NCBI GenBank assembly: GCA_024641305.1
Contig: JAHEDI010000003.1
Location: 48,889 to 112,888, forward strand
Reading direction: 5' to 3'
Length of the DNA stretch: 64,000 nucleotides
Origin: a bacterium
GTDB lineage: Bacteria; Actinomycetota; Acidimicrobiia; Spongiisociales; JAENVV01
A program made the translations under genes and the position numbers. The notes under the pieces are model-generated. The model saw only the letters and a program-made list of their open reading frames with translations, made no database searches and was not told the origin of the DNA. This document shows, piece by piece, positions 1,940-43,298 of the stretch; positions within the stretch are counted from its first letter, which is position 1, and each line of letters begins with the position of its first letter.

Positions 1940-3081
1940 TGGCTGGTCCGTTGTCCGGGATTCAGGTCGTCGAACTCGCCGGGATCGGCCCCGGTCCGTT
2001 CTGCGCAATGATGCTTGCCGACATGGGAGCTGAGGTCGTCCGGGTGGATCGTCCCGATCAGGTAGGGGCCGTGAACTGGAACTCGCATGATGTTCTCAAC
2101 CGCGGGCGGCGGACCATCGCAGTGAATCTCAAGCATCCTGACGGCGTCGAAGTCGTGATGAAACTGATCGAAGCGGCCGATGGGCTCATTGAGGGATTTC
2201 GACCGGGGGTTGCCGAGCGGCTCGGGCTCGGGCCGGAGTCGTGCTGGGAACGCAACCCCGGTCTTGTCTATGGTCGGATGACCGGGTGGGGGCAGAATGG
2301 CCCGCTGTCAAACACCGCCGGGCATGACATCGATTACATTGCCATATCAGGCGTTCTCGGTGCGATTGGGAGGGAGGGAGATAGGCCGGTCCCCCCGCTC
2401 AACCTCGTAGGCGATTTCGGAGGGGGCGGCCTGCTGCTGGCATTCGGGATGGTTTGTGGACTGCTTGAGGCCAGGGAGTCAGGACTGGGCCAGGTCGTCG
2501 ATGCCGCCATGACGGACGGTTCGTCGATCCTCTCCACGTTTGTCTACGGTTTGGCAGCAGCCGGTTTGTGGGACCTTGATCGCAAAGGCACAAATCTCCT
2601 GGATTCCGGGGCGCCCTGGTACGACACGTACACAACGGCGGACGGGCTCTTTATGGCGGTGGGAGCCATCGAGCCGCAGTTTTATGCGGCGCTTCTCAAG
2701 GGCCTCGGATTCGCCGAAACCGATCTCCCCGCTCAGCATGACCGGACGCGATGGCCAGATCTGCGCCGGGCTTTTTCCGAACGGTTTGCTGAGAAAACCC
2801 GGGAAGGATGGGTGGCGGTCTTCGATGGGACCGATGCGTGTGTTGCGCCGGTGCTACGGCTTAGTGAGGCGGCTGAGCATCCTCACAATGTGGCGCGGTC
2901 TACCTTTGTCGACATCGATGGGATCACGCAGCCGGCCCCTGCCCCCCGATTCAGTCGGACCTCGTCGGCTACGCCGGCTCCTCCGGCCGGGCCGGGTACT
3001 CACACCGACGTAGTCCTCGCAGACATGGGCCTGTCTGTTTCGGCGATCAAGGCACTTCGTGAGTCGGGTGCGATCGCCTGA
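1939..3081 (+). CDS. CoA-transferase family III (CaiB/BaiF, alpha-methylacyl-CoA racemase-like)
   Basis: N-terminus LSGIQVVELAGIGPGPFCAMMLADMGAEVVRVDRP is typical of family III CoA transferases. Its start overlaps the stop of the upstream SDR. Confidence 0.8.
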   Translation: MAGPLSGIQVVELAGIGPGPFCAMMLADMGAEVVRVDRPDQVGAVNWNSHDVLNRGRRTIAVNLKHPDGVEVVMKLIEAADGLIEGFRPGVAERLGLGPESCWERNPGLVYGRMTGWGQNGPLSNTAGHDIDYIAISGVLGAIGREGDRPVPPLNLVGDFGGGGLLLAFGMVCGLLEARESGLGQVVDAAMTDGSSILSTFVYGLAAAGLWDLDRKGTNLLDSGAPWYDTYTTADGLFMAVGAIEPQFYAALLKGLGFAETDLPAQHDRTRWPDLRRAFSERFAEKTREGWVAVFDGTDACVAPVLRLSEAAEHPHNVARSTFVDIDGITQPAPAPRFSRTSSATPAPPAGPGTHTDVVLADMGLSVSAIKALRESGAIA

Positions 3082-3151
3082 CTGCTCCTCGCCGCAGCTG
3101 TCTCGGTGTGACTACGATTGGCAACACAGAACGAGGTTTTTCGGAGGAATA

Positions 3152-4939
3152 ATGCAGGAGTATTCGAGTCCGACCGCGGTTGAGGTCGACCCCAATGAGA
3201 CCGTCCCGGATGGATTGTGGGAGGCCGAGCGCAACCACCCGAATCGGGCTGCCCTCGCTTACCGGGACGGTGACGGCTTCGTAGATGTTTCGACCAAGCA
3301 GCTCGCCGATCGGGTTCGGAGGATCGCGGCCGGGTTCATGGCGGCCGGCATCGAGAAGGGCGATCGCATTTGTCTGTTCTCGTCGTCTCGGCGTGAGTTC
3401 ACCGAGGTCGACTACGCCATTTGGGCGGCCGGTTGTGCGACCGTGACGATCTATGAAACTTCTTCCTCGGAGCAGGTTGAGTGGATCGTCAAAGATTCGG
3501 GAGCGACGGCCATCGTTTGCGAGAATGATCGACTGGTAGAGGTCTTCAATGAGCGGGCCGGTACGTTAGGTACGGTCAAGCACGTGTACTCGATCGAGTC
3601 TGGTGGCCTTGATGCGCTTGTCGAGTCTGGAACAGCGATTTCAGATGATGACGTGATGGCTCGCGCCGCCAGCGTCGACCAGTCGGACCTCGCCACCCTC
3701 GTGTACACATCTGGTACGACCGGTCTACCGAAGGGGTGTCATCTCACTCACCGCAACTTTGTGTTTATTACGCGCAACGTTGCCAGCGATGCGAGCGATG
3801 TGCTCTATCCGGGCGCATCGACCCTGATGTTCCTTCCTTTGGCTCACATTTTTGCGAGGCTCGTTCAGGTCGGATCGGTCAACGTAGGCTCGAAGATTGC
3901 CTTCTCCACAGGCATCCCGCAGTTGATGGAAGAGTTGCAGATGGTCAAGCCGACGTGGATCTTTTCCGTCCCGCGGGTTTTCGAGAAGGTGTACAACAGT
4001 TCCGCTGCGAAGGCCGCCGATGACGGCAAAGGCAAGATTTTCGATATCGCGGCACAGACGGCAATCGATTACGCCAAACAGCGCGAAGCCGGGGCAGTTG
4101 GGCTGGCGACTCGTGTCAAGCACATGGTCTTCGACAAGCTGGTCTATGCCAAGATCCGCGCAGCGCTGGGTGGCCGGGCTACCCACGCTATCTCAGGTGG
4201 GGCTCCATTGGGAGAGCGGCTGGGTTACTTTTATTCAGGGGTTGGCCTGAAGGTCTATGAGGGGTATGGACTCACTGAGACTTCGGCCGGATCGACTCTC
4301 AACCGCCAAGGGGCGATGAAGATCGGCACGGTCGGCAAACCCATCTCCGGTGTGTCGATCAGGATTGCCGAGGATGGCGAAGTTCTCATCGCCGGCCCTC
4401 ATGTGTTCTCGGGGTACTGGAACAACGATGCCGCTACGAGCGATGCCATCAAAGAAGGTTGGTTCCATACCGGCGACATCGGCGCCCTGGATGATGAGGG
4501 GTTCCTTCGGATCACCGGTAGGAAGAAGGAGATCATTGTCACCGCAGGTGGCAAGAATGTCGCGCCGGCGGTCCTTGAGGACCGTTTACGTGCCCATCCC
4601 CTTGTTAGTCAGTGTGTGGTGGTCGGCGACGCCCAGCCATTTATCGCGGTCATGGTGACGATCGATCCGGATGAGTTCGTTCGGTGGAAGGGTCAGCACG
4701 ACAAACAAGGCGACATCCATGAGCTTGTCGATGATGTCCATCTCCGAGAAGAGATTCAGGCAGCCATCCAGGAGGCCAACAACGCCGTATCCAAGGCAGA
4801 GGCCATCAAAGAGTTCCGGATTCTGCCTTCCGACTTCACCATCGAGGGCGGCGAGATAACCCCGACGCTCAAGGTCAAGCGCAACGTTGTTCATGACAAG
4901 TACAGCCACGTGCTGGCCGATATCTACCGCAAGAAGTAG
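3152..4939 (+). CDS. Long-chain fatty-acid--CoA ligase (AMP-binding, FadD-like)
   Basis: AMP-binding motifs YTSGTTGLPKG and the GYGLTE core. Start chosen at the ATG preceded by GGAGGAA (MQEYSS...) rather than the track's longer ORF, which would overlap the CoA transferase. Confidence 0.85.
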   Translation: MQEYSSPTAVEVDPNETVPDGLWEAERNHPNRAALAYRDGDGFVDVSTKQLADRVRRIAAGFMAAGIEKGDRICLFSSSRREFTEVDYAIWAAGCATVTIYETSSSEQVEWIVKDSGATAIVCENDRLVEVFNERAGTLGTVKHVYSIESGGLDALVESGTAISDDDVMARAASVDQSDLATLVYTSGTTGLPKGCHLTHRNFVFITRNVASDASDVLYPGASTLMFLPLAHIFARLVQVGSVNVGSKIAFSTGIPQLMEELQMVKPTWIFSVPRVFEKVYNSSAAKAADDGKGKIFDIAAQTAIDYAKQREAGAVGLATRVKHMVFDKLVYAKIRAALGGRATHAISGGAPLGERLGYFYSGVGLKVYEGYGLTETSAGSTLNRQGAMKIGTVGKPISGVSIRIAEDGEVLIAGPHVFSGYWNNDAATSDAIKEGWFHTGDIGALDDEGFLRITGRKKEIIVTAGGKNVAPAVLEDRLRAHPLVSQCVVVGDAQPFIAVMVTIDPDEFVRWKGQHDKQGDIHELVDDVHLREEIQAAIQEANNAVSKAEAIKEFRILPSDFTIEGGEITPTLKVKRNVVHDKYSHVLADIYRKK

Positions 4940-31593: not shown

Positions 31594-32049
31594 ATGCGTT
31601 TGGTTGTTCAGCGGGTTCGTCATGCGTCGGTGGTGGTCGGCGGTCGTGAGGTCGGATCGATTGGCACCGGTTTACTGGTTCTGGCCGGTACCACGCACGG
31701 CGATTCGGAAACAGACGTGCGGGTTCTGGCGGAAAAGTTGGTCAACCTCCGGGTGTTTCCCGACGCGGACGGAAAGATGAACCGATCACTGCTTGATATC
31801 GGGGGACAGCTCCTACTGGTAAGCCAGTTCACCTTGTACGGTTCGGTCATGCGCGGTAATCGGCCGTCCTTCACCGGAGCCGGAGACCCCGTCGAGGCGG
31901 CTCGCCTTCTCGACCGGCTCGAGACTGAGATACAAGATCGTGGGGTTCACGTGGCCGGTGGAGAATTTGGCGCTTCGATGGAGGTTTCTTTGCTCAACGA
32001 TGGGCCGGTGACGTTGATTCTGGAATCCGTGTCGGGCAAACTCCGCTAG
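31594..32049 (+). CDS. dtd: D-aminoacyl-tRNA deacylase
   Basis: MRLVVQRV...SQFTLY...NGPVT(L)ILE hallmarks of Dtd. 151 aa. Confidence 0.85.
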   Translation: MRLVVQRVRHASVVVGGREVGSIGTGLLVLAGTTHGDSETDVRVLAEKLVNLRVFPDADGKMNRSLLDIGGQLLLVSQFTLYGSVMRGNRPSFTGAGDPVEAARLLDRLETEIQDRGVHVAGGEFGASMEVSLLNDGPVTLILESVSGKLR

Positions 32050-35000
32050 GACTCCAACCAGGCTTTCCCTTCCGGGCAGAAGCGGAGGAAATCGCAATTG
32101 GAACAGGCACTGGACGGGATCGGGTCGAATACCTGAGCGCCGATACCTTCGGCGATGCCCGACAACCGGCTTCTGGCGGCCTCCATCCAGGCGTCATCGA
32201 TGTGTTCGGTTCGCTCGGTGAGGCTCCCGCCCCCCAGGTAGGCAAACGTGGCGATCATCTGGTCCGGTCGGGTGGGTCCGAGGGACCCCCTGTCGACGGC
32301 CACTGCATAGGCCTGGAGCTGCACGTCCATCGCCGGGTTCTCAGAGGGTCTACCCGACTTGAAGTCGACGATTTCCCATGTCCCCGGTTGTTCCTCATAT
32401 ACGGCATCGATCCGGCCACGGATTCGCATACCGTCATGGACAAACTCGAACGGCGCTTCGATAAGGCGGGCGGCCAGGGTCGAAAATCGTGACTGTTCGA
32501 ACACGGTGAACGCGCTTGCAACATCCGACGGACCTGCGTCGGGAGCGTCATAGAAGTCGTCGGTGACCTCCTCGAACGGCACCGCGCCTCGTTGGAACAG
32601 TTCGATCTTGCGATGAACGTCAACTCCGCGCCGAGCTGCGGCTGATGGGCGACGGGGAAGGCGATCGACCTCGGACCAGTAGTACCGTTTTGGGCAGCTG
32701 GCGTAGGTAACCAGAGACGTGACGGATGTGGCGAGCGGGGCGGGAATTGGTGGACCGACCGGGTCGTCTGGCAAGTCGAAGAGTATCTGCTGAAAGTCGG
32801 TCACGGCCTGATCGTAGGTCGATCGCACGCCGAGTTGATCAGCCTGATGGCTGGCCCAACCAGGGTCAGAAAGGGTGGCACGCAATGCGCCATCCCACCC
32901 ATCGGCGAATGTCGGATCGGGCGATCCTGCTAGCGGTGACCGGCGGAGCGATTCCGGTCGAACCGGGTCCTCAACCGTCCCGAGATCGACGACATCGGGC
33001 TGTTCGGCGGCGATTTCAAAGAGCCGGCTTGGCTTTCCTGGTGTCTTGCGCACTTCGGTAGTCCCGTGCCAGGTTGCCCCGGTCAGCGTCAGCCATCGGC
33101 GTGCCCTGGTTACTGCTACGTAGGCGATACGCCACTCTTGGTCCAGGTCGCGCTGGCGCAACAGGTCGCGTCGTTCTGCCTCAGTCATGTCCGCGCTAAT
33201 TGGGGGCAGCGTATGTCGGTCAAGTCGCAGTTCGTACGGGAGCATGTATGGGTGACGAAATGGATCGTCCGAGACCCCTGAGGAACTTGGGAAGTTCTTG
33301 TCGTATAAGGCGGGTATGAACACCGCGTCCCATTCGAGGCCTTTGGAGCGATGAACTGTCAGCAGAGCGACAGCATCTTCTCCTGATAGCCGGGCCGTAT
33401 CGAGTTCTTCGGTCTGCTCTTCAACCATCACGGTGAGGTAGTCGACGAACGCCCGCAACGAGGGGCGTCCTTCAAGCGGGCTCCATTCTTCGGCCAGATC
33501 GAGGAAGCGGTAGAGATTCAGTCGCGCCGACTGGCGGGCGGCGGCCGGCATAGCGGCCACCTCCGGCCAGGCTCCGGTCCTTGACAGGATCTGGCGCACC
33601 AGCTCAATCAGGTTGACGCCCTGGGCGGCCTCGAGCAGGCTCCGGTAGGTGATGTGCAGGTGTACCAGGGCGTCAATCGTGCGGTCGTCGAGTTGATCGA
33701 CCTGGAGGTGATCGTCCTGACCCAGGGTTCCGGCATCGTCGCCCTGCGTCGACGTAAGCTGGTCGAGGGCCTCGACCATCGAGCGGCCGAACTCAGGTTG
33801 GTTCTTGACCCATCGCGACAATGGTTTGACGTCGTGCATACCGAGTCGATAGCGGCTGCCCATCGCAATACGGATGAAGGCCGGCTCGTCCGACGGGTTG
33901 TCGAGCAGACGCAACCAGGCGAAAACATCGGCTACCTCAGGTATGCCAAGAAGTCCGCCCAGGTTGGCCACCTCCACGGGGATCCCGAACTCCTCGAGAG
34001 CGCCTCGGACGGCCTCAATGTCCTTGTTCTTTCTGAAGAGAACAGCGATTTCCTTCCAGGCGATGCCCTGTTCCTCGTGCAGAGCGAGCACCTGTTCGGC
34101 GATGAAGTCCGCTTCATCGACGGCGTTGCCCTCCCAACGCACGCTGACCGCTGCCGGGCTCGTCTCGTCAAGCGCCCGTAGTGGGTCGGTGACTTCTCCG
34201 AGTTCCTCGCGTATTCGATTGGCCAGGTTCAAAATGGTTTGGCCGGATCGGCGATTGAGTGTCAATGGGTAGGTCGGGGCGGGTGACCCGTCAAGGTTGG
34301 GGAAGTGGTCGCCGAATCCCGAAAAGTTCGCCAGTGATGCGCCTCGCCACTCATAAATCGTCTGGTCGGCATCTCCAACGGCCGTGATCGGGAATCCGTC
34401 TCCGAACAGCTTACGGAGCAGTTCGCGTTGGGCGGGGTTGGTGTCCTGGTATTCGTCGAGATACACGGCGTCGTAACGACTGCGAATGCGAGCCGCCAGG
34501 TCCGGGTAGTCGCTGGTGAGTCGGTTGGCTCGAAAGATCAGGTCACCGAAATCGGCCACTCCTATGCGACGTTTTTCTTGCTCATACCGCTCGATAATGC
34601 CGAGGATCTCCAGTCGGGTCTCCCACAGCTCGTCGAGCTTGGATGGCATGAGCCCGGCCAGGTGGGAGGGTTCGGCCAGGTTGTCGGCGAGAGCGGCGGC
34701 GAGCCGGGCTGGACGGTCGAGGATCCCGCTCCACGTGATGTTCAGGTACCGGTAGGTACCGCCTTCCACGGCATCGTGGAAGAGCTGACGGGCGAACGTT
34801 GGTGTGATGAGCTGCGTGTCGCGCTCCACCCCTACGAGCGGCCCGAACTCACTGAGGATCTGATGGGCGAAACCGTGATAGGTATGGACCTCAACAGTGC
34901 GCGCCGGGTCGATACGATCGGCCAAAACGTCACGGACCCGGTCGGCGAGTTCGGCAGCGGCTTTGTTGGTAAACGTGATGCCCAGGATTCGTTCAGGATC

Positions 35001-35141
35001 TGCCCCAGAGTCGATGAGGTGAGCGATGCGATGGGCGAGCGTGGTTGTCTTGCCGGTTCCCGCCCCGGCAGCAATTCGCATGGGACCGATCGGGGCACCG
35101 ATGATCGCTGACTGCTCGTCGCTCGGTAGGAATGCGGTCAT
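32046..35141 (-). CDS. adnB: ATP-dependent helicase/nuclease subunit AdnB-like (UvrD helicase plus C-terminal RecB-type nuclease with Cys cluster)
   Basis: Walker A AGAGTGKTTTL, UvrD motifs, and a C-terminal PD-(D/E)xK region (DFKSG...QLQAY) with Cys residues (CPKRYYW...CSNCDFLRFCP). Its start overlaps the adnA stop (ATGA). Confidence 0.8.
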   Translation of the reverse strand: MTAFLPSDEQSAIIGAPIGPMRIAAGAGTGKTTTLAHRIAHLIDSGADPERILGITFTNKAAAELADRVRDVLADRIDPARTVEVHTYHGFAHQILSEFGPLVGVERDTQLITPTFARQLFHDAVEGGTYRYLNITWSGILDRPARLAAALADNLAEPSHLAGLMPSKLDELWETRLEILGIIERYEQEKRRIGVADFGDLIFRANRLTSDYPDLAARIRSRYDAVYLDEYQDTNPAQRELLRKLFGDGFPITAVGDADQTIYEWRGASLANFSGFGDHFPNLDGSPAPTYPLTLNRRSGQTILNLANRIREELGEVTDPLRALDETSPAAVSVRWEGNAVDEADFIAEQVLALHEEQGIAWKEIAVLFRKNKDIEAVRGALEEFGIPVEVANLGGLLGIPEVADVFAWLRLLDNPSDEPAFIRIAMGSRYRLGMHDVKPLSRWVKNQPEFGRSMVEALDQLTSTQGDDAGTLGQDDHLQVDQLDDRTIDALVHLHITYRSLLEAAQGVNLIELVRQILSRTGAWPEVAAMPAAARQSARLNLYRFLDLAEEWSPLEGRPSLRAFVDYLTVMVEEQTEELDTARLSGEDAVALLTVHRSKGLEWDAVFIPALYDKNFPSSSGVSDDPFRHPYMLPYELRLDRHTLPPISADMTEAERRDLLRQRDLDQEWRIAYVAVTRARRWLTLTGATWHGTTEVRKTPGKPSRLFEIAAEQPDVVDLGTVEDPVRPESLRRSPLAGSPDPTFADGWDGALRATLSDPGWASHQADQLGVRSTYDQAVTDFQQILFDLPDDPVGPPIPAPLATSVTSLVTYASCPKRYYWSEVDRLPRRPSAAARRGVDVHRKIELFQRGAVPFEEVTDDFYDAPDAGPSDVASAFTVFEQSRFSTLAARLIEAPFEFVHDGMRIRGRIDAVYEEQPGTWEIVDFKSGRPSENPAMDVQLQAYAVAVDRGSLGPTRPDQMIATFAYLGGGSLTERTEHIDDAWMEAARSRLSGIAEGIGAQVFDPIPSSACSNCDFLRFCPEGKAWLES

Positions 35142-38107
35142 CGGACAAATGCCTCTCGTCCTTCGGGCCAGAGGGGGCACACCAGTTTTACGGAGCAGTT
35201 ATTGCAGTGTATGCCGATCCGCGGGGTCCAATCTTCCGCCCGGATCCCCTCGGCGATTTCGGCCATGGAACCGAGAACCTGATCGAGCCGTGACGGATCG
35301 AATGCCACCCATTTCTTCTTCCGATCGGCGGCGGGATACCAGAACTCGGCTTCGGTTGGCGTGCCGTGTTTGAGGACCTCGGGGTCTTTCTGGGCTGCCG
35401 CCAGGTAGAACGCCAGTTGAATGGATTCAGCTGCGTCGGCCTGGCTGGGGATGCTTGTTGAGGTCTTGTAATCGACAACCCGGAGTTCGCCCTCGGCTTG
35501 TCGTTCTATACGATCGGCCCGGCCATTCCAGGTGATGTCGCTGATGTCCATCGAGAGCGTGTGTTCGAGAATCACTGCCGTGGCTCCAGGACGGATCCAG
35601 TCGGCGTATAGCTCGGTCAGCAGTTTGGTGGCTTTGTTGTACCAGGCCAGTTGGCGAGCTCCGATGTCCAGGTCGTACGTGTCGAACAGTTCGTCGAGCC
35701 ATACCAGCGCATCGTCGACGGTTGAGCGGTCGGCGCCGGTTTCGACGGCGCGGCGCTCGGCCTGTTCGAGTACGTCGTGGATCAGGCTCCCGAAGGTGGC
35801 GTAGCGTCCGAATTCGCTGGCAATGCCGAGCCTCCGTTCGAAGGCGTACCGTCGCGGGCAGGCGTCATATGAGGTTGCCTGGCTCGGGGAAAACGTTGCC
35901 CGGTCGGGGATCAAGCCGTGATCGCCGCCCCGGGGGCGAACCCCGGCAAAGTCGAGTGGGTGACGAACTGAGCGGTTCGGTCTCCTGGCCAGGACTTCGG
36001 CTGCGGCCAATCGAATGCCGGCTCCTATCGTCGGGTCGGTGAGTCGTCGCCTGAGCAGCGCTTCGGCCTCGAGCGGCGTGACCGGGATCTCGTCGGTCTC
36101 GTCGACGAGGTTGAGCGGAGCGTCTTCGTCGAGGGCGGTCAGGAAACGGCTTGGTCGTTTGTCCGTTTCGTCGATACCAGCCGAGGTGGCGGTCCAGATG
36201 GCGTGGCGGGCAGCCCGGGTGGTGGCGGTGTAGGCGAGTCGCCGTTCTTCCGCCAGTCGGAATTGGAGGCTGTCGGCGATGTCGTGGTTGGGGGACAGCA
36301 GATGTGGTTGAAGGAGGGAGCGGTTCCTTCTCAGGTCGGGAAAGGTGCCTTCGGTCGCGTCGGCGATGAAGACCACATCGAACTCAAGACCTTTGGACTG
36401 GTGAAGGGTCGTGAGCGTCAACCGGTCGCCATCGGGCCGGAACGAGAGGAGCGGGTTGGCCTCGAAGTCATCCTGCTCGGTGAGCTTCCCGTATGCGTAC
36501 AGGCCTACATGAGGGTCCCGCTCAAATTGACGCTCCACCGCCTGAGCGAGCGCCGACCACGCAGCCCGATAGGGGCCTGCCGACGGAGACGCCACCAATC
36601 CTTCGAACTGGGGGAGCGTTGACCAGACGTGCCAGAATCCGTTCACGGCCGGAAGCTCAGTCGCCCAGGTGTCATCGCCGATGAGTGTTGCCAATGGCCC
36701 GAGCCACTCGGAGTCGTAGGCCTCAAGAATCGTCGCCCAGTCATTGCCGGTTGATCTGCGCAGCCGGAGCAAGTCGCGCTCGGTGGCCAGGGCCGTGCGA
36801 AACATCGGGCCGAGGAGTAGGCGGCGAATGGCCCGATCACAGTCATCGGCTGCTCCGGTCCCAACCTTGGCGTCGTGGTGATGGGCGGCGTTGGCGATAT
36901 CGAACACGGCCCTGACGCCCGGATGATCGGCCAGGCGCGTGTCCGGTGAATCGTGGGGAATGGCCCGCCGTTCAAGCGCCCGAGATAGCTCGGCGAGAAA
37001 ACGTCGTTTGGATCGAACCAGGACGGCCATCTTGTGATAGGGAACCGACTCGGTGATGTGCATCTGCTGAACCCGCTTGGCGATCCACTCGGCCTCCTGG
37101 GACTGCTGGGTGAACAGCAAACGCTCAAGCCTTCCGGCGTGAGGTGCCGGGATTACCGAGCGGATGGCTTCGGCGTGAGGGACGAGACGATTGGCCGCGT
37201 CAAGAATGACCGCCGGTACGCGAAACGACGTTGTCAGGACGTACTGTTTCACGGGTTCGTCGGGGCTGCCGAACCGGTCGCCGAATCGATCAACGTTGTC
37301 GAGTTCGGCACCCCGGAACGAATAGACGGACTGGAGCGGGTCGGCCACCACCGTCAGATTGCGGCGCCGCTTGGTAACCCCGCCGAGCAGGGCAGCCTGG
37401 GCGGCCGTGGTGTCCTGGTACTCGTCGACGAGGACATAGTGATACTGGTCGGCGAGGGCTTCCGTGATGGTGCTTCGTCCGGCTAATTCGACGGCTCGAG
37501 CTTGCAGGGTTCCGTAGTCGATTCGATCCGAGGTCGTGATCGCTTCGAGGTACTTTGCACGGAATGCGCCCAGGCCCCGCCAGTCTGCCCGGGGTGCGGC
37601 CAGTGACGACAGTGCCGCATCGTCGAGCAGGTATTCCTGGGACCGCATGATGAAGTCGGCGACCTCTTCGGCAAAACTTCGGCTATCGAGCAACGGCCGA
37701 AAGGGCAGCGGCCAATCCGCCCGGGTTTCGGTTGCGAGTAGTCCGGCGACGACGCTCACATGCTCAGGGCCGGTCAGCAGCGTCGGCATGGTGTTCCACC
37801 CGAAGGCAGCCGGAGCATGCGCCTCGAGTAGTCGATACGCAAAACTGTGAAAGGTCGAGACGCTTAGTCCGGAAATCTGCGTGGGGGCGGTCGCGGTGAT
37901 GGCGTCGCGCAGTCGAGATGCCCCGCGTCGAGAAAATGTCAGAACGAGAATCTGGGAGGGAGGCACGCCGGATTTGAGAATGGCGGCGGCCCGACGGGCC
38001 AGGAAGGTTGTTTTTCCCGTGCCTGGCCCGGCGACAATCAGTTGGGGGCCGTCCAACAAGGTAAGGGTACGGTCCCAATCGTCGGGGTCGATACGTTCGG
38101 CAGTCAC
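35138..38107 (-). CDS. adnA: ATP-dependent helicase/nuclease subunit AdnA-like
   Basis: Walker A AGPGTGKTTFL, UvrD-like motifs, and a C-terminal nuclease module with VDYKTS...QLAFY and CNNCSVKLVCP. Lies immediately upstream of adnB as in mycobacteria. Confidence 0.75.
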   Translation of the reverse strand: MTAERIDPDDWDRTLTLLDGPQLIVAGPGTGKTTFLARRAAAILKSGVPPSQILVLTFSRRGASRLRDAITATAPTQISGLSVSTFHSFAYRLLEAHAPAAFGWNTMPTLLTGPEHVSVVAGLLATETRADWPLPFRPLLDSRSFAEEVADFIMRSQEYLLDDAALSSLAAPRADWRGLGAFRAKYLEAITTSDRIDYGTLQARAVELAGRSTITEALADQYHYVLVDEYQDTTAAQAALLGGVTKRRRNLTVVADPLQSVYSFRGAELDNVDRFGDRFGSPDEPVKQYVLTTSFRVPAVILDAANRLVPHAEAIRSVIPAPHAGRLERLLFTQQSQEAEWIAKRVQQMHITESVPYHKMAVLVRSKRRFLAELSRALERRAIPHDSPDTRLADHPGVRAVFDIANAAHHHDAKVGTGAADDCDRAIRRLLLGPMFRTALATERDLLRLRRSTGNDWATILEAYDSEWLGPLATLIGDDTWATELPAVNGFWHVWSTLPQFEGLVASPSAGPYRAAWSALAQAVERQFERDPHVGLYAYGKLTEQDDFEANPLLSFRPDGDRLTLTTLHQSKGLEFDVVFIADATEGTFPDLRRNRSLLQPHLLSPNHDIADSLQFRLAEERRLAYTATTRAARHAIWTATSAGIDETDKRPSRFLTALDEDAPLNLVDETDEIPVTPLEAEALLRRRLTDPTIGAGIRLAAAEVLARRPNRSVRHPLDFAGVRPRGGDHGLIPDRATFSPSQATSYDACPRRYAFERRLGIASEFGRYATFGSLIHDVLEQAERRAVETGADRSTVDDALVWLDELFDTYDLDIGARQLAWYNKATKLLTELYADWIRPGATAVILEHTLSMDISDITWNGRADRIERQAEGELRVVDYKTSTSIPSQADAAESIQLAFYLAAAQKDPEVLKHGTPTEAEFWYPAADRKKKWVAFDPSRLDQVLGSMAEIAEGIRAEDWTPRIGIHCNNCSVKLVCPLWPEGREAFVR

Positions 38108-39908: not shown

Positions 39909-40718
39909 CTACGAAGCGGCCGCGTCGGCTGTTTCGGCGCCGATCGCGCCAAATGCCGGGCACAGATCTTGGTATGAGCACCAATCGCACAGTTTGTTGA
40001 CTCTCGGCGGGAAGGTCTGGCTCTCGATCGCTCGATCGATGGCTTTCCAGAGTGCCTGGAGCTGTTGATTCATGGCGTCGAGATGGCCATCGGTAACCTC
40101 GAGCCGGTACATGGTGGGCCCGTTCAGATAGAGCAGACGTACCTCGACGGGTGTTCTTCCTAGCTTCTCCCTGATCAATAGCGCGTAGATCTTCAGGGCA
40201 AAAAAGGCCGGCTCGGCGAAACGCTCCGGGGGCGCCTTTCCAGACTTGTAATCGGTGATGATGAGCTCACCGGAGGGCGTCTCATCGATGCGGTCGAGAA
40301 TGCCGCGGATGGTGATGTCTCCCAGGGGTTGGAGCATGTCCATTTCCCGTTCGAGCGGATGGACTTCAGGCGGGTTCTCCACCGAGAAATAATTGGCCAG
40401 GAGTTTCATACTGTCGACGCCCCAAGTGCGTTCCTCATCCACGCTGGCGAACAGGTCGGCGTACTCCTCGGTGGCTCGCATTTGAGTCCAGGCGTCGCGG
40501 AACAAGTCATACAGTTTTTCGGGCGTCCGGGCGGTAGGGGGAAGGTCATAGAGTTTCTGGAGAGCCAGGTGTGCGGTGGTTCCCCGCGCTTGATGCACGG
40601 TGGTTGGTTCGGGAAGTTTGTCGATCGAGCGAAACTTGAAAAGCTGTGGACACAGCTTGAAGTCGCTCGCTCGACTCGGTGAAAGTGTCTCCAATGCCAT
40701 GGTGCGACTATACGACAT
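39909..40718 (-). CDS. PD-(D/E)xK (RecB/Cas4-like) nuclease with C-terminal Cys cluster
   Basis: Core IITDYKSGKAP...(E)..AL.IYALL nuclease motif (D-x-K plus QxxxY), a C-terminal CDWCSYQDLCP cluster and an N-terminal Cys (FKLCPQLF). This fits a Cas4-like 4Fe-4S nuclease domain. Confidence 0.7.
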   Translation of the reverse strand: MSYSRTMALETLSPSRASDFKLCPQLFKFRSIDKLPEPTTVHQARGTTAHLALQKLYDLPPTARTPEKLYDLFRDAWTQMRATEEYADLFASVDEERTWGVDSMKLLANYFSVENPPEVHPLEREMDMLQPLGDITIRGILDRIDETPSGELIITDYKSGKAPPERFAEPAFFALKIYALLIREKLGRTPVEVRLLYLNGPTMYRLEVTDGHLDAMNQQLQALWKAIDRAIESQTFPPRVNKLCDWCSYQDLCPAFGAIGAETADAAAS

Positions 40719-41399
40719 AGGAGTGACACGTTTGTTATTCGCTTCGGTTGCGGCCGGGCGATGTTCCGCCGATTTCGCATGAGAAAGCCGTTGTCGAGGC
40801 AAAGCGCGAAACCTTTGGCTAGCTCGCGAAATTTAGGTACCGAATTAACTTGGCAGTCCTCCCGAAGTGCGGTACGTTTATTGAACCGCATCGACGGGAC
40901 GGCCGGAGGGGCAACTCACCGGACAGAGCGACGGAGCGGATTGCTGAAACCGAGAGGGTTCAGTGAAAGCTACTGGGAGAACGAGGCCCTCGGGCAGCGG
41001 AGTTCCAGAAAGCGGGGAAGCCCTGAAGTGGCACAGGCGCAAGTCTGAGTCTCGGCAGGGCTTCTTGCTTTAACCAGCCACCGGTTCGTCCGTCTCACTG
41101 CTGACGGTCCCGGCGTTTATCACTCAGGTGGATGTTCCGTCGAAACCGATGATGCGACTCTGTCATGGTTCCCGCCCTGCCCTGCTTGGCCGGCCGGTGA
41201 ATGGATGAGCCCGTCTGAAAATCGTCATCCGAGGTGGCCAAACTCGCCGCCAGGTCTGACCCAGAAGTCCCAGCGACCCTGCCCGTGATGCGGTTCGCGA
41301 AAATTAGTCTCAAGTCGCGAAATCTAACCACGATCTGAGCTTGCCAAGTCGGTCCCGGTGTTCTACTTTTCATCTTGTTCGAAGCGGGGCGACCCGCAG

Positions 41400-41870
41400 A
41401 GAGCACCGACAACCTGAAACCTTCGGGCGACAGGGCTGGCCTTCGGGTCGGTGTTGGAGTCCCGGCAACGGGACAGCCGCTTGAACGGCTGAAACCGCCT
41501 TCGGGTGGGGACAACGTTGGAGAGGTAGGTGGAACCGAAGAAGGAGCCTTCGGGTTCGTTGGACGGAACCGCCGAGGCCCGCAAGGGTCGCCCTTTTTGG
41601 GCAAAGTGTGAGAGCACTGGACCGCAAGGAAACGTGCAGGATCGCTGGCAACGGTCGACCGGAAACGTGAGATCTAGCCACCGCCAACCGGCCCTCGGGC
41701 CAGTTGGTTGCAGAAGAGCCTTCGGGTTCGGACGCATGCCAGTGAAGGAGTCTTTCGGGACACACCCACCGGCGACGAGACAACCCCGAGAGGGTGAAGA
41801 CTTCGGTCGGAACTTACTCGGGGTTTCTCGCGTTGGGGCAACATTCGCTTGCCGATGCCGGGTAAAGTTT
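41400..41870 (+). other. Candidate structured RNA or long structured 5' leader: an array of UUCG/CUCG-tetraloop hairpins upstream of the PH-SHOCT gene
   Basis: At least 8 occurrences of CC-UUCG-GG, GCC-CUCG-GGC and GAC-UUCG-GUC hairpins, with recurring GAAACC and GTTGG spacers, in ~470 nt. No convincing ORF on either strand. Coordinates are approximate. Confidence 0.35.
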
Positions 41871-41874
41871 CTCC

Positions 41875-42465
41875 ATGGCATATCCGACCAAACTGCTCAG
41901 TGACGGCGAAAAGGTAGTGAGAGAATTTCGACCCCATTGGCAGGCGATCGCCCTGCCCGTAGGGATTGTTCTCGGTACGACCGTCGTCGGAGGCGTGCTC
42001 GGAGCGATACTCGAGAATGTTGCCGTACCTTTGGCCATCGGGGTGGTGCTCGGATTGGTAATTTCGATTCCGAAACTGATGGTGTGGGCCTTCACCAAGT
42101 ACGTGATCACCAACGAACGGGTGATTGTTCGATCCGGCGTGTTCGCTCGCCATGGGAAAGAAATACCCCTAGAGGTCATCAACGATGTGGCGTTTTCCCA
42201 GAGCCTGCTGGAGAGGATGGTCGGATCTGGTGATCTATTGCTCGAATCTGCCGGCGAAATGGGGCAGTCAAGGTTTACGAACATTCCCACACCTGAGGAG
42301 ATTCAAACGCTGATTTATAAAGCCCGGGAGAGTCGAATGTCCGCTCTGAACTCGGGTCAAACCGCCGCCGACACGCTGACGACGCTCGCCCAACTCCACC
42401 GCGATGGGGTTCTCACAGACGAGGAGTTTGAGGCGAAGAAGCACAAGCTGCTCGGAGAGATTTAG
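41875..42465 (+). CDS. Membrane PH-domain (bPH_2 / YdbS-like) protein with C-terminal SHOCT domain
   Basis: Two N-terminal TM helices followed by a bPH_2-like domain. C-terminal LAQLHRDGVLTDEEFEAKKHKLL matches the SHOCT motif. Confidence 0.65.
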   Translation: MAYPTKLLSDGEKVVREFRPHWQAIALPVGIVLGTTVVGGVLGAILENVAVPLAIGVVLGLVISIPKLMVWAFTKYVITNERVIVRSGVFARHGKEIPLEVINDVAFSQSLLERMVGSGDLLLESAGEMGQSRFTNIPTPEEIQTLIYKARESRMSALNSGQTAADTLTTLAQLHRDGVLTDEEFEAKKHKLLGEI

Positions 42466-42989: not shown

Positions 42990-43298
42990 ATGTCGCGAAA
43001 TCGAAGGGGACTAGACACCATGTACGAGGTGATGGAGTACACGGACGTGCGACCGTCCATTGACAACCCGAATCCGACTCCGCTTGAGCGTTCGATCGGG
43101 GTGTTTGAGGTTGAGCAAGATGCTGTGGAAGCCGGTCGAGCGGTCCGGGCCGAGTTCATCGAGTCGGAACGAGCCGAGTACACATGGTGGACGGTGCGTC
43201 AGCCCGGGTCACGTCTGGCCAACTGGATTGCTGATTCCCATTCGCCCAAGGAGTTCATGCTCGATCTCACCAGCGGTGAGCTCGTCGAGATGGAATGA
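42990..43298 (+). CDS. Hypothetical small protein
   Basis: 102-aa ORF filling the gap between ybaK-like and pghP-like genes. Its stop overlaps the next start (ATGA). No recognisable domain. Confidence 0.35.
   Translation: MSRNRRGLDTMYEVMEYTDVRPSIDNPNPTPLERSIGVFEVEQDAVEAGRAVRAEFIESERAEYTWWTVRQPGSRLANWIADSHSPKEFMLDLTSGELVEME

Follow-up and report, generated by a model that had tools for sequence, protein, structure and literature searches.

Two tandem genes for structured RNAs upstream of a PH-SHOCT gene very probably represent an Acidimicrobiia non-coding RNA family absent from Rfam

The window analysed here is a stretch of 64,000 nucleotides (nt) of contig JAHEDI010000003.1 from a bacterium of the class Acidimicrobiia (Actinomycetota). 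Between a gene for a nuclease and a gene for a bPH_2+SHOCT membrane protein (PH-SHOCT) it contains a gap without protein genes, in which an earlier note, made from the letters alone, had placed four CGCGAAA-type boxes and a single array of UUCG-capped hairpins (~41400-41870). We found that the gap holds two RNA genes on the same strand, a short one (~40885-41070) and a long one (~41376-41832); the shorter first gene and the paralogous two-gene layout had been missed in the single-array description. Very probably, the two constitute a conserved pair of independently promoted genes for structured non-coding RNAs (ncRNAs), whose family is absent from Rfam 15. In the nearest relatives, loci L002-L005, blastn aligned two blocks of the gap, 40799-41075 at 88-90% and 41295-41834 at 82% identity, each opening with a box pair and separated from the other by an unconserved spacer; the short RNA itself is 88-90% and the long RNA 82% identical in these loci. 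The spacer between the RNAs is lineage-specific and measures only ~45 nt in L002 and L004. Locus L010 (58% PH-SHOCT identity) showed the same order as the window, namely nuclease (minus strand), box pair, short RNA, box pair, long RNA and PH-SHOCT. At 2532-3917, L010 carries an exact tandem duplication of the long unit together with its box pair and promoter (period 693 base pairs, bp), the result of either a recent duplication of the gene or an artefact of assembly.

All four boxes proved to be exact copies of CGCGAAA (40805-40811, 40825-40831, 41296-41302 and 41316-41322), a few nt off the positions first given for them. They had been regarded as operators or promoters of the two divergent protein genes; each pair instead precedes a predicted plus-strand RNA promoter, with the boxes lying at about -80 and -60 (centres near -77 and -57). 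Counted as a bare 8-mer, the box motif shows no enrichment within the window (6 found versus 3.9 expected). The exact pair with a 13-nt spacer occurs at only these two places within the window, and box pairs with 13-14 nt spacing were kept in 179 distinct related promoter regions, obtained from ~45 species-level genomes and at least 120 metagenome stretches. Conserved columns of the core promoters were read from alignments of 25 long units (A1) and 16 short units (A2); in A1, which covers 25 genomes, the TTG and TCTAC.TT columns were invariant or nearly so. Regex and model scans recovered the same succession of box pair, core promoter, RNA and signature hairpin. Scanning of the 179 regions revealed a core promoter in 161, and in 159 of these TTG follows the second box at an offset of exactly 25 nt. 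The spacer between -35 and -10 measures 17-18 nt and the -10 element has the form TANNNT, most commonly TACTTT and TACGTT. These patterns point to an ordinary actinobacterial, sigma-A-type promoter, TTGNNN-N17/18-TANNNT, for each RNA gene, with predicted RNA starts at ~40885 (short) and ~41376 (long). A dedicated activator, or another factor that contacts RNA polymerase (RNAP), would bind to the box pair. Throughout ~1.3 Mb of fetched loci, nearly every box pair sat ahead of a family RNA and no other regulon target was seen; a literature search on the box motif returned primers and unrelated matches only. One extra TCGCGAAATCGA in the window (42993-43003), unpaired and lying within coding sequence at codons 2-5 of the open reading frame (ORF) 42990-43298, is probably a chance match.

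In its predicted fold, the short RNA opens with an extended, nested hairpin at the 5' end; next come one that has a CC-GAGA-GG loop and one built in three tiers with GGGAGA/GGAGU as internal loop, and UUGCUUU follows the last, 3' hairpin (41017-41064). The long RNA begins with a 5' GNRA hairpin and continues with a chain of roughly twelve short hairpins whose caps are UUCG, GNRA or CUCG. Its 3' ~200 nt align with R1, a covariance model built from short RNAs, and the long paralog is a short-like 3' module with extra hairpins on its 5' side. Folding z-scores were -4.5 for the long and -4.41 for the short RNA. Counting stems of at least 3 bp, 41376-41833 holds six UNCG and six GNRA tetraloops, the densest 458-nt stretch of the window; dinucleotide shuffles contained 0.49 UNCG loops on average and three at most (500 shuffles), versus the six observed. 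The array described earlier was real: UUCG/GNRA density peaks here, CCTTCGGG is present five times, and CTTTCGGG, GACTTCGGTC and CCCGCAAGGG were all found. Likewise, GCCCTCGGGC does occur twice, with one of the copies, at 40986, lying beyond the ~41400-41870 range.

The proposal that the UUCG hairpins reflect selected RNA structure was borne out by strong base-pair covariation. In a MAFFT alignment of 23 short RNAs made without structure fitting (A5), 93.4% of cells were paired and 21 of 37 pairs showed double changes. The covariation score was 0.49 compared to 0.28 in shuffles, none of which attained it (0/500), and sliding the 3' partners reduced pairing to 32-61%. For the long RNA, seven close relatives of its clade (A6, six distinct sequences) gave 151 pairs with 96.5% of cells paired, versus 34-47% when slid, and double changes in 12 pairs. 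Base pairs covary in a strand-specific way: minus-strand R1 scores lie far below those of the plus strand, and the helices contain many G-U pairs. Besides the two units, R1 matched nothing in the 64 kb but weak echoes of both 3' hairpins on the reverse strand (E 0.005 and 0.095) and a chance-level match of 16 nt (E 0.46).

About 69% of nucleotides are paired. Across 59 non-redundant long RNAs, 8-23 hairpins were predicted per RNA. Tetraloops made up 647 of the 745 predicted loops (87%), mainly UUCG, GAAA, GAGA and GCAA, with UNCG or GNRA loops accounting for 70%. No single-stranded motif was repeated many times in these 59 RNAs, and even the top linker 5-mers, GGAAG and CGGAA, stayed below one copy per RNA. 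One subfamily of short RNAs (alignment A4; for example L037 1916-2067 and L029 3234-3382) carries, in place of the UUCG-capped third hairpin, a hairpin with a 10-nt loop, GGCCCGCUUU. This apical loop is nearly invariant in the subfamily and may be a seed or contact site; no other exposed sequence is conserved in the family.

The most conserved part of the RNAs lies at their 3' end. Family-wide, units end with CCCCGAGAGGG...CUCGGGG-UUUCUCGCG, the general form being CCCCGAG-A-GGGU...GRC-UUCG-GYC...CUCGGGG. The long RNA and most family members carry this hairpin nearly invariant, and the short RNA of the window has a diverged, compensated version (41017-41064), a feature of the short RNA in the window's clade. 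CCCGAGAGGG and CTCGGG are invariant in A1. Among 63 distinct sequences, conservation of the lower stem and the tail reaches at least 90%, and outside stems it is likewise centred on the 3' hairpin and its tail. Whereas the upper stems of the hairpin covary, the lower stem does not. A ~55-nt element corresponding to 41778-41838 was also recovered upstream of PH-SHOCT in ~40 more distant loci, often in two or three copies and nearly always on the PH-SHOCT strand, with one reverse-strand match in L022. We infer that the hairpin would have a double role, in intrinsic termination and in specific recognition. The tail UUUCUCGCG (41824-41832) resembles the reverse complement of the CGCGAAA box, and L007 and L010 show an inverted imperfect box pair directly after each terminator (TTCCGCG-N12-ATTCGCG); the box-binding factor may also bind at the end of the RNA gene.

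Downstream of the long RNA, PH-SHOCT has no Shine-Dalgarno sequence, and a TANNNT element lies 6-8 nt before its start codon in 27 of 33 RNA-bearing loci. This arrangement indicates a leaderless PH-SHOCT mRNA with a predicted promoter of its own after the terminator of the RNA. Moreover, a convergent ORF of 425 amino acids (aa) separates RNA and PH-SHOCT in L034, and 0.5-1.4 kb lie between them in several contigs. Of the two possibilities that the earlier note had left side by side, a long structured 5' leader or riboregulator and an independent ncRNA, the second is favoured; an obligatory PH-SHOCT leader is at odds with the terminator-like hairpin of the RNA, the leaderless PH-SHOCT and the intervening ORF of L034. 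A cis-acting leader is always a 5' untranslated region and its ORF has no separate promoter, which is not what we found here, and the RNA genes appear to be independent of the downstream ORF. A candidate pairing of the 3' hairpin apex with PH-SHOCT codons 3-8 (41795-41811 with 41883-41899) was rejected, the complementarity not being conserved in L010.

Table 1 Features of the RNA locus (window positions unless a contig is named; RNA and promoter boundaries are predictions)
Feature	Coordinates	Strand	Remarks
PD-(D/E)XK (RecB/Cas4-like) nuclease gene	39909-40718	minus	upstream flank of gap
Gap without protein genes	40719-41874		between nuclease gene and bPH_2+SHOCT gene
Box pair 1	40805-40831	+	CGCGAAA, 13-nt spacer, CGCGAAA; ahead of short-RNA promoter
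Predicted short-RNA core promoter	40850-40878	+	-35 TTGGCA (40850-55), 17-nt spacer, -10 TACGTT (40873-78); conserved columns, alignment A2
Short small RNA (sRNA), ~185 nt	40885-41070	+	R1 match 40910-41069, 120 bits, E 2e-29
Inter-RNA spacer	41073-41295	.	variable, outside conserved system; without blastn conservation in L002-L005, without tetraloop hairpins
Box pair 2	41296-41322	+	CGCGAAA, 13-nt spacer, CGCGAAA; ahead of long-RNA promoter
Predicted long-RNA core promoter	41341-41369	+	-35 TTGCCA (41341-46), 17-nt spacer, -10 TACTTT (41364-69); alignment A1
Long sRNA, ~455 nt	41376-41832	+	R1 match 41633-41832, 48.8 bits
Family 3' element	41784-41823	+	CCCCGAG-A-GGGU-GAA-GAC-UUCG-GUC-GGA-ACUU-A-CUCGGGG, plus tail UUUCUCGCG at 41824-41832; terminator-like hairpin
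PH-SHOCT -10 element	41863-41877	+	own -10 TAAAGT (41863-68), 6 nt before ATG (41875); marks boundary of RNA system
bPH_2+SHOCT (PH-SHOCT) membrane-protein gene	41875-42465	plus	downstream flank of gap
Second-context short units	L116 8367-8603; L160 3786-4023; L162 6649-6886; L148 3936-4171; L135 1311-1546		

The neighbourhood of the pair is one of chromosomal DNA repair and housekeeping (GPAT, Mur ligase, Ddl, RecG, GAF histidine kinase) without a mobile element. Just upstream of the stand-alone nuclease, two adjacent minus-strand genes that each encode a UvrD-helicase + PD-(D/E)XK protein (32046-38107; 1044 and 989 aa) form an AdnA/AdnB-like pair. PADLOC gave only generic Cas4/DruK-like PD-(D/E)XK similarity for the nuclease and no match for its neighbours including PH-SHOCT, and a defence-system context was rejected. 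The nuclease gene looks leaderless as well: a minus-strand TATAGT (40707-40712) precedes the ATG at 40700 by 6 nt (region 40698-40718), an arrangement also kept in L010, and translation may start at 40700 (263 aa) instead of the called 40718.

Six Logan contigs contain identical or near-identical copies of the window, and among GTDB records the closest are metagenome-assembled genomes of Acidimicrobiia. When 80 loci with PH-SHOCT homologues were searched with the gap by blastn and with R1, the model found the family in ~45 of these 80 species-level genomes, usually with two matches per locus. It gave no match in loci L048 and above (PH-SHOCT identity mostly below ~44%), except L050, L065, L067 and L068, nor in Chloroflexi, Gaiellaceae or Nitriliruptoria loci; PH-SHOCT loci of other classes or below ~44% identity had neither a large intergenic region nor a match. 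Independently of synteny, a pattern search for the 3' hairpin recovered at least 120 metagenome stretches and no viral contig. In most of these matches a same-strand box pair lies 130-800 nt upstream; on contigs that are long enough, the divergent nuclease is usually found upstream and PH-SHOCT downstream. About a dozen contigs carry a well-conserved ~155-nt short unit in a second context without nuclease or PH-SHOCT on the contig, where a luciferase-like monooxygenase or aldo-keto reductase gene is its upstream neighbour and a TetR or methyltransferase gene its downstream one. Going by record titles, the family seems confined to Acidimicrobiia. Eight RNA-bearing loci (L029, L032, L037, L040, L042, L047, L065 and L067) belong to records titled Acidobacteriota or Acidobacteria, labels that were not confirmed; these loci show Acidimicrobiia synteny and 42-51% PH-SHOCT identity, and either the labels are wrong or the family extends beyond Acidimicrobiia.

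In line with the earlier note, in which no known RNA had been recognised, scans with Rfam 15 at gathering score gave no match in the whole window and none in 144 kb of 14 related loci. Scans at E<=10 returned chance matches to eukaryotic miRNA, snoRNA and lncRNA hairpins far below gathering, searches for tRNA and tmRNA found none, and the literature searched contained no paper on an Acidimicrobiia ncRNA of this kind. As conserved, covarying ncRNAs found by comparative genomics whose function is at most partly known, the raiA motif, OLE, ROOL and GOLLD are comparable, and OLE is genetically linked to a membrane-protein gene. Their Rfam models gave no match, however, and they form multi-junction pseudoknotted folds with many conserved nucleotides, whereas the RNAs described here consist of simple, sequence-variable hairpins with conservation confined to the promoter and the 3' hairpin.

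How the RNAs act can be proposed with considerably less confidence than their existence. Stable hairpins lock nearly everything, sequence-specific conservation resides in the 3' hairpin, and the body tolerates gain and loss of hairpins; because of these properties, we tentatively favour, at no better than even odds, that the RNAs act in trans by binding a protein. Two tandem paralogs, each transcribed independently from its own promoter, would yield abundant, stable and regulated trans-acting RNAs, and their conserved 3' module would bind the protein for titration or scaffolding, in the manner of CsrB/RsmZ or 6S/Ms1/CoRP, rather than offer a base-pairing seed. In organisation, the CsrB/Rsm type is the closest analogy. 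CsrB/CsrC and RsmX/Y/Z of Gammaproteobacteria are protein-titrating sRNAs whose GGA motifs in loops or linkers are bound by CsrA/RsmA. Shared with them are paralogs of unequal length, sometimes in tandem, a conserved upstream activating sequence, meant for a dedicated activator, before an ordinary sigma-70 promoter, and a chain of hairpins in variable number that ends in a conserved Rho-independent terminator hairpin. With activating sequence, paralogs and terminator hairpin all present, the resemblance is nevertheless organisational only: loops here are UUCG or GNRA, no single-stranded motif occurs more than about once per RNA, and there is no sequence or Rfam similarity. A CsrB-like GGA valency was rejected, being absent among the 745 predicted loops and the linkers of the 59 long RNAs.

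Several points weigh against independent genes whose products act in trans through protein. The transcript ends are predictions from sequence conservation, and a generic TTGACA/TATAAT (sigma-70) scan called neither RNA promoter, so that promoter assignment rests on conservation and geometry. The terminator usually lies 45-110 nt from the PH-SHOCT start, a co-orientation that a purely trans-acting model leaves unexplained, and no gene neighbours the family RNA in all contexts, nor was a partner protein or box-binding factor identified among the neighbours. Conservation of the 3' hairpin could reflect no more than termination, or else a DNA site, given its tail like an inverted box. Finally, the conserved 10-nt loop of one subfamily would suit a base-pairing seed.

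This last point leads to the alternative that fares best, although we consider it unlikely: the two RNAs could be classical base-pairing sRNAs that regulate in trans via a short exposed seed and carry their hairpins for stability. An own promoter, a terminator hairpin and paralogs are typical sRNA anatomy, the 10-nt apical loop is nearly invariant in its subfamily, and actinobacterial sRNAs such as 6C use loop seeds. In the window's own subfamily, however, that loop is replaced by a UUCG tetraloop, hardly any unpaired position outside the 3' element is conserved among the 63 sequences, and the long form adds nothing but closed hairpins. The sole complementarity to PH-SHOCT is not kept in L010 either.

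Somewhat less probable still is a special case of protein binding, in which the RNAs would be the Acidimicrobiia counterpart of the RNAP-binding RNAs Ms1, 6S and CoRP and sequester RNAP core or holoenzyme. The Ms1, 6S and CoRP RNAs are abundant. Like the present family, they are highly structured and lineage-specific (200-516 nt, with no sequence shared between orders; PMC9130861, PMC11077062), and they occur in the same phylum. Conserved Ms1 synteny would place the RNA between a HAD-IB hydrolase gene and an oxidoreductase, Fic, PH-domain or TetR gene (PMC9130861). These flanks are echoed in part here by the bPH_2 gene of the window locus and by the luciferase-like oxidoreductase and TetR genes of the second context, which we take as a lead only, and the promoter is strong and conserved. 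Against this, the genes scanned up to ~10 kb to either side included no HAD-IB hydrolase, and when Streptomyces coelicolor Ms1 (scr3559) was compared by blastn with 137 family sequences and the window gap, the best E was 1.3, a weak test given that Ms1 RNAs of different orders lack similarity to one another as well. With synteny only partial and no sequence similarity, identity with Ms1 appears unlikely; for CoRP, no shared motif was seen. Structurally, 6S and Ms1 are rods with a closing stem and a central bubble (in 6S, a rod of ~180 nt whose 5' and 3' ends form the stem around a large bubble), whereas the consensus folds of the short and long RNAs are strings of local hairpins with neither, and no Rfam 6S match was obtained. 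A 6S- or RNase P-like RNA of ~410 nt, closed by pairing of 40883-40910 with 41269-41296, was rejected too, this one long-range 5'/3' complementarity not being conserved even in the closest relative. At the spacer end, 41281-41296 shows a 15-nt complementarity to the 5' end of the short RNA (40883-40898) that is absent from the closest relative, L001.

That the long RNA is instead a cis element of PH-SHOCT, either a leader or attenuator or an upstream unit acting by terminator read-through or promoter occlusion, seems improbable to us. It does lie on the same strand directly upstream, at the short terminator-to-start distance given above in most loci; the weak U-tract (UUUCUCGCG) makes read-through plausible, and the synteny persists in a sample chosen without regard to synteny. 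Yet a read-through transcript would be poorly translatable, given the own -10 element and the missing Shine-Dalgarno sequence of PH-SHOCT, RNA and PH-SHOCT are separated by genes or by 0.5-1.4 kb in several genomes, what follows the short paralog is another promoter rather than an ORF, and some short units are found far from any PH-SHOCT gene. Type III toxin-antitoxin systems resemble the locus in that promoter, repetitive structured RNA (ToxI) and terminator precede a same-strand protein gene. ToxI, however, consists of near-identical tandem direct repeats that are processed by the toxin, whereas Tandem Repeats Finder (TRF) detected none in 40700-41900, and the downstream gene encodes a bPH_2-SHOCT membrane protein with its own predicted promoter and no PADLOC match that is not always adjacent.

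Two further explanations can be set aside as very improbable. The first, a protein-coding or decayed gene, could appeal to long open frames on both strands (172-aa minus-strand ORF 41363-41881; 124-aa ORF 41529-41903) and to a gene called over the latter in one Logan contig (L085 1048-1422), but the absence of a convincing ORF held up: the ORFs have no Pfam match, all three minus-strand frames are open as an effect of composition, substitutions in stems are compensatory, and coding is excluded because close relatives differ by single-nt indels and variable columns lack 3-nt periodicity (43/39/35). The public 124-aa call covers the long RNA and overlaps the PH-SHOCT start, and frame-shifting indels in relatives break it; it is a spurious annotation, which can now be corrected, gene callers at times putting a spurious ORF over a long RNA. 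The second, that the hairpins are DNA-level repeats, such as repetitive extragenic palindromes (REPs) or miniature inverted-repeat transposable elements (MITEs), a mobile-element remnant or an origin, rather than RNA genes, could draw on the richness of the stretch in palindromes and the 693-bp tandem duplication in one genome. REPs or MITEs, however, would occur as many dispersed copies in either orientation, whereas the only significant plus-strand R1 matches in the 64 kb are the two units of this locus, strand and position are fixed across related genomes, the G-U-rich helices score far lower on the reverse strand, and neither a tandem repeat (TRF, 40700-41900) nor a viral-contig match was found.

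The literature searched yielded no published work on the RNA biology of Acidimicrobiia, a class of abundant and for the most part uncultured Actinomycetota. The family described here adds a well-delimited, apparently class-specific RNA with a covariance model and a distinctive promoter signature, which makes it searchable in metatranscriptomes, and provides a handle for finding both the factor that binds the CGCGAAA boxes and the partner of the invariant 3' hairpin. Going further, and with doubt, we can picture the family as the RNA half of an undescribed, class-wide global regulatory circuit, in which a dedicated DNA-binding factor, reading the rigidly spaced box pair, would switch on a short and an expandable long RNA whose invariant 3' hairpin would capture a specific protein. 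That protein could be RNAP, in which case the family would be a new class of RNAP-binding RNA unlike 6S and Ms1, or a still unknown RNA-binding regulator. To our knowledge, Hfq, ProQ and CsrA are not typically found in this phylum. If the partner is indeed RNAP or a global RNA-binding protein, the family would bear on two questions posed in work on actinobacteria: which abundant RNA occupies RNAP where no 6S or Ms1 is recognisable, and what replaces regulation of the Hfq or CsrA type.

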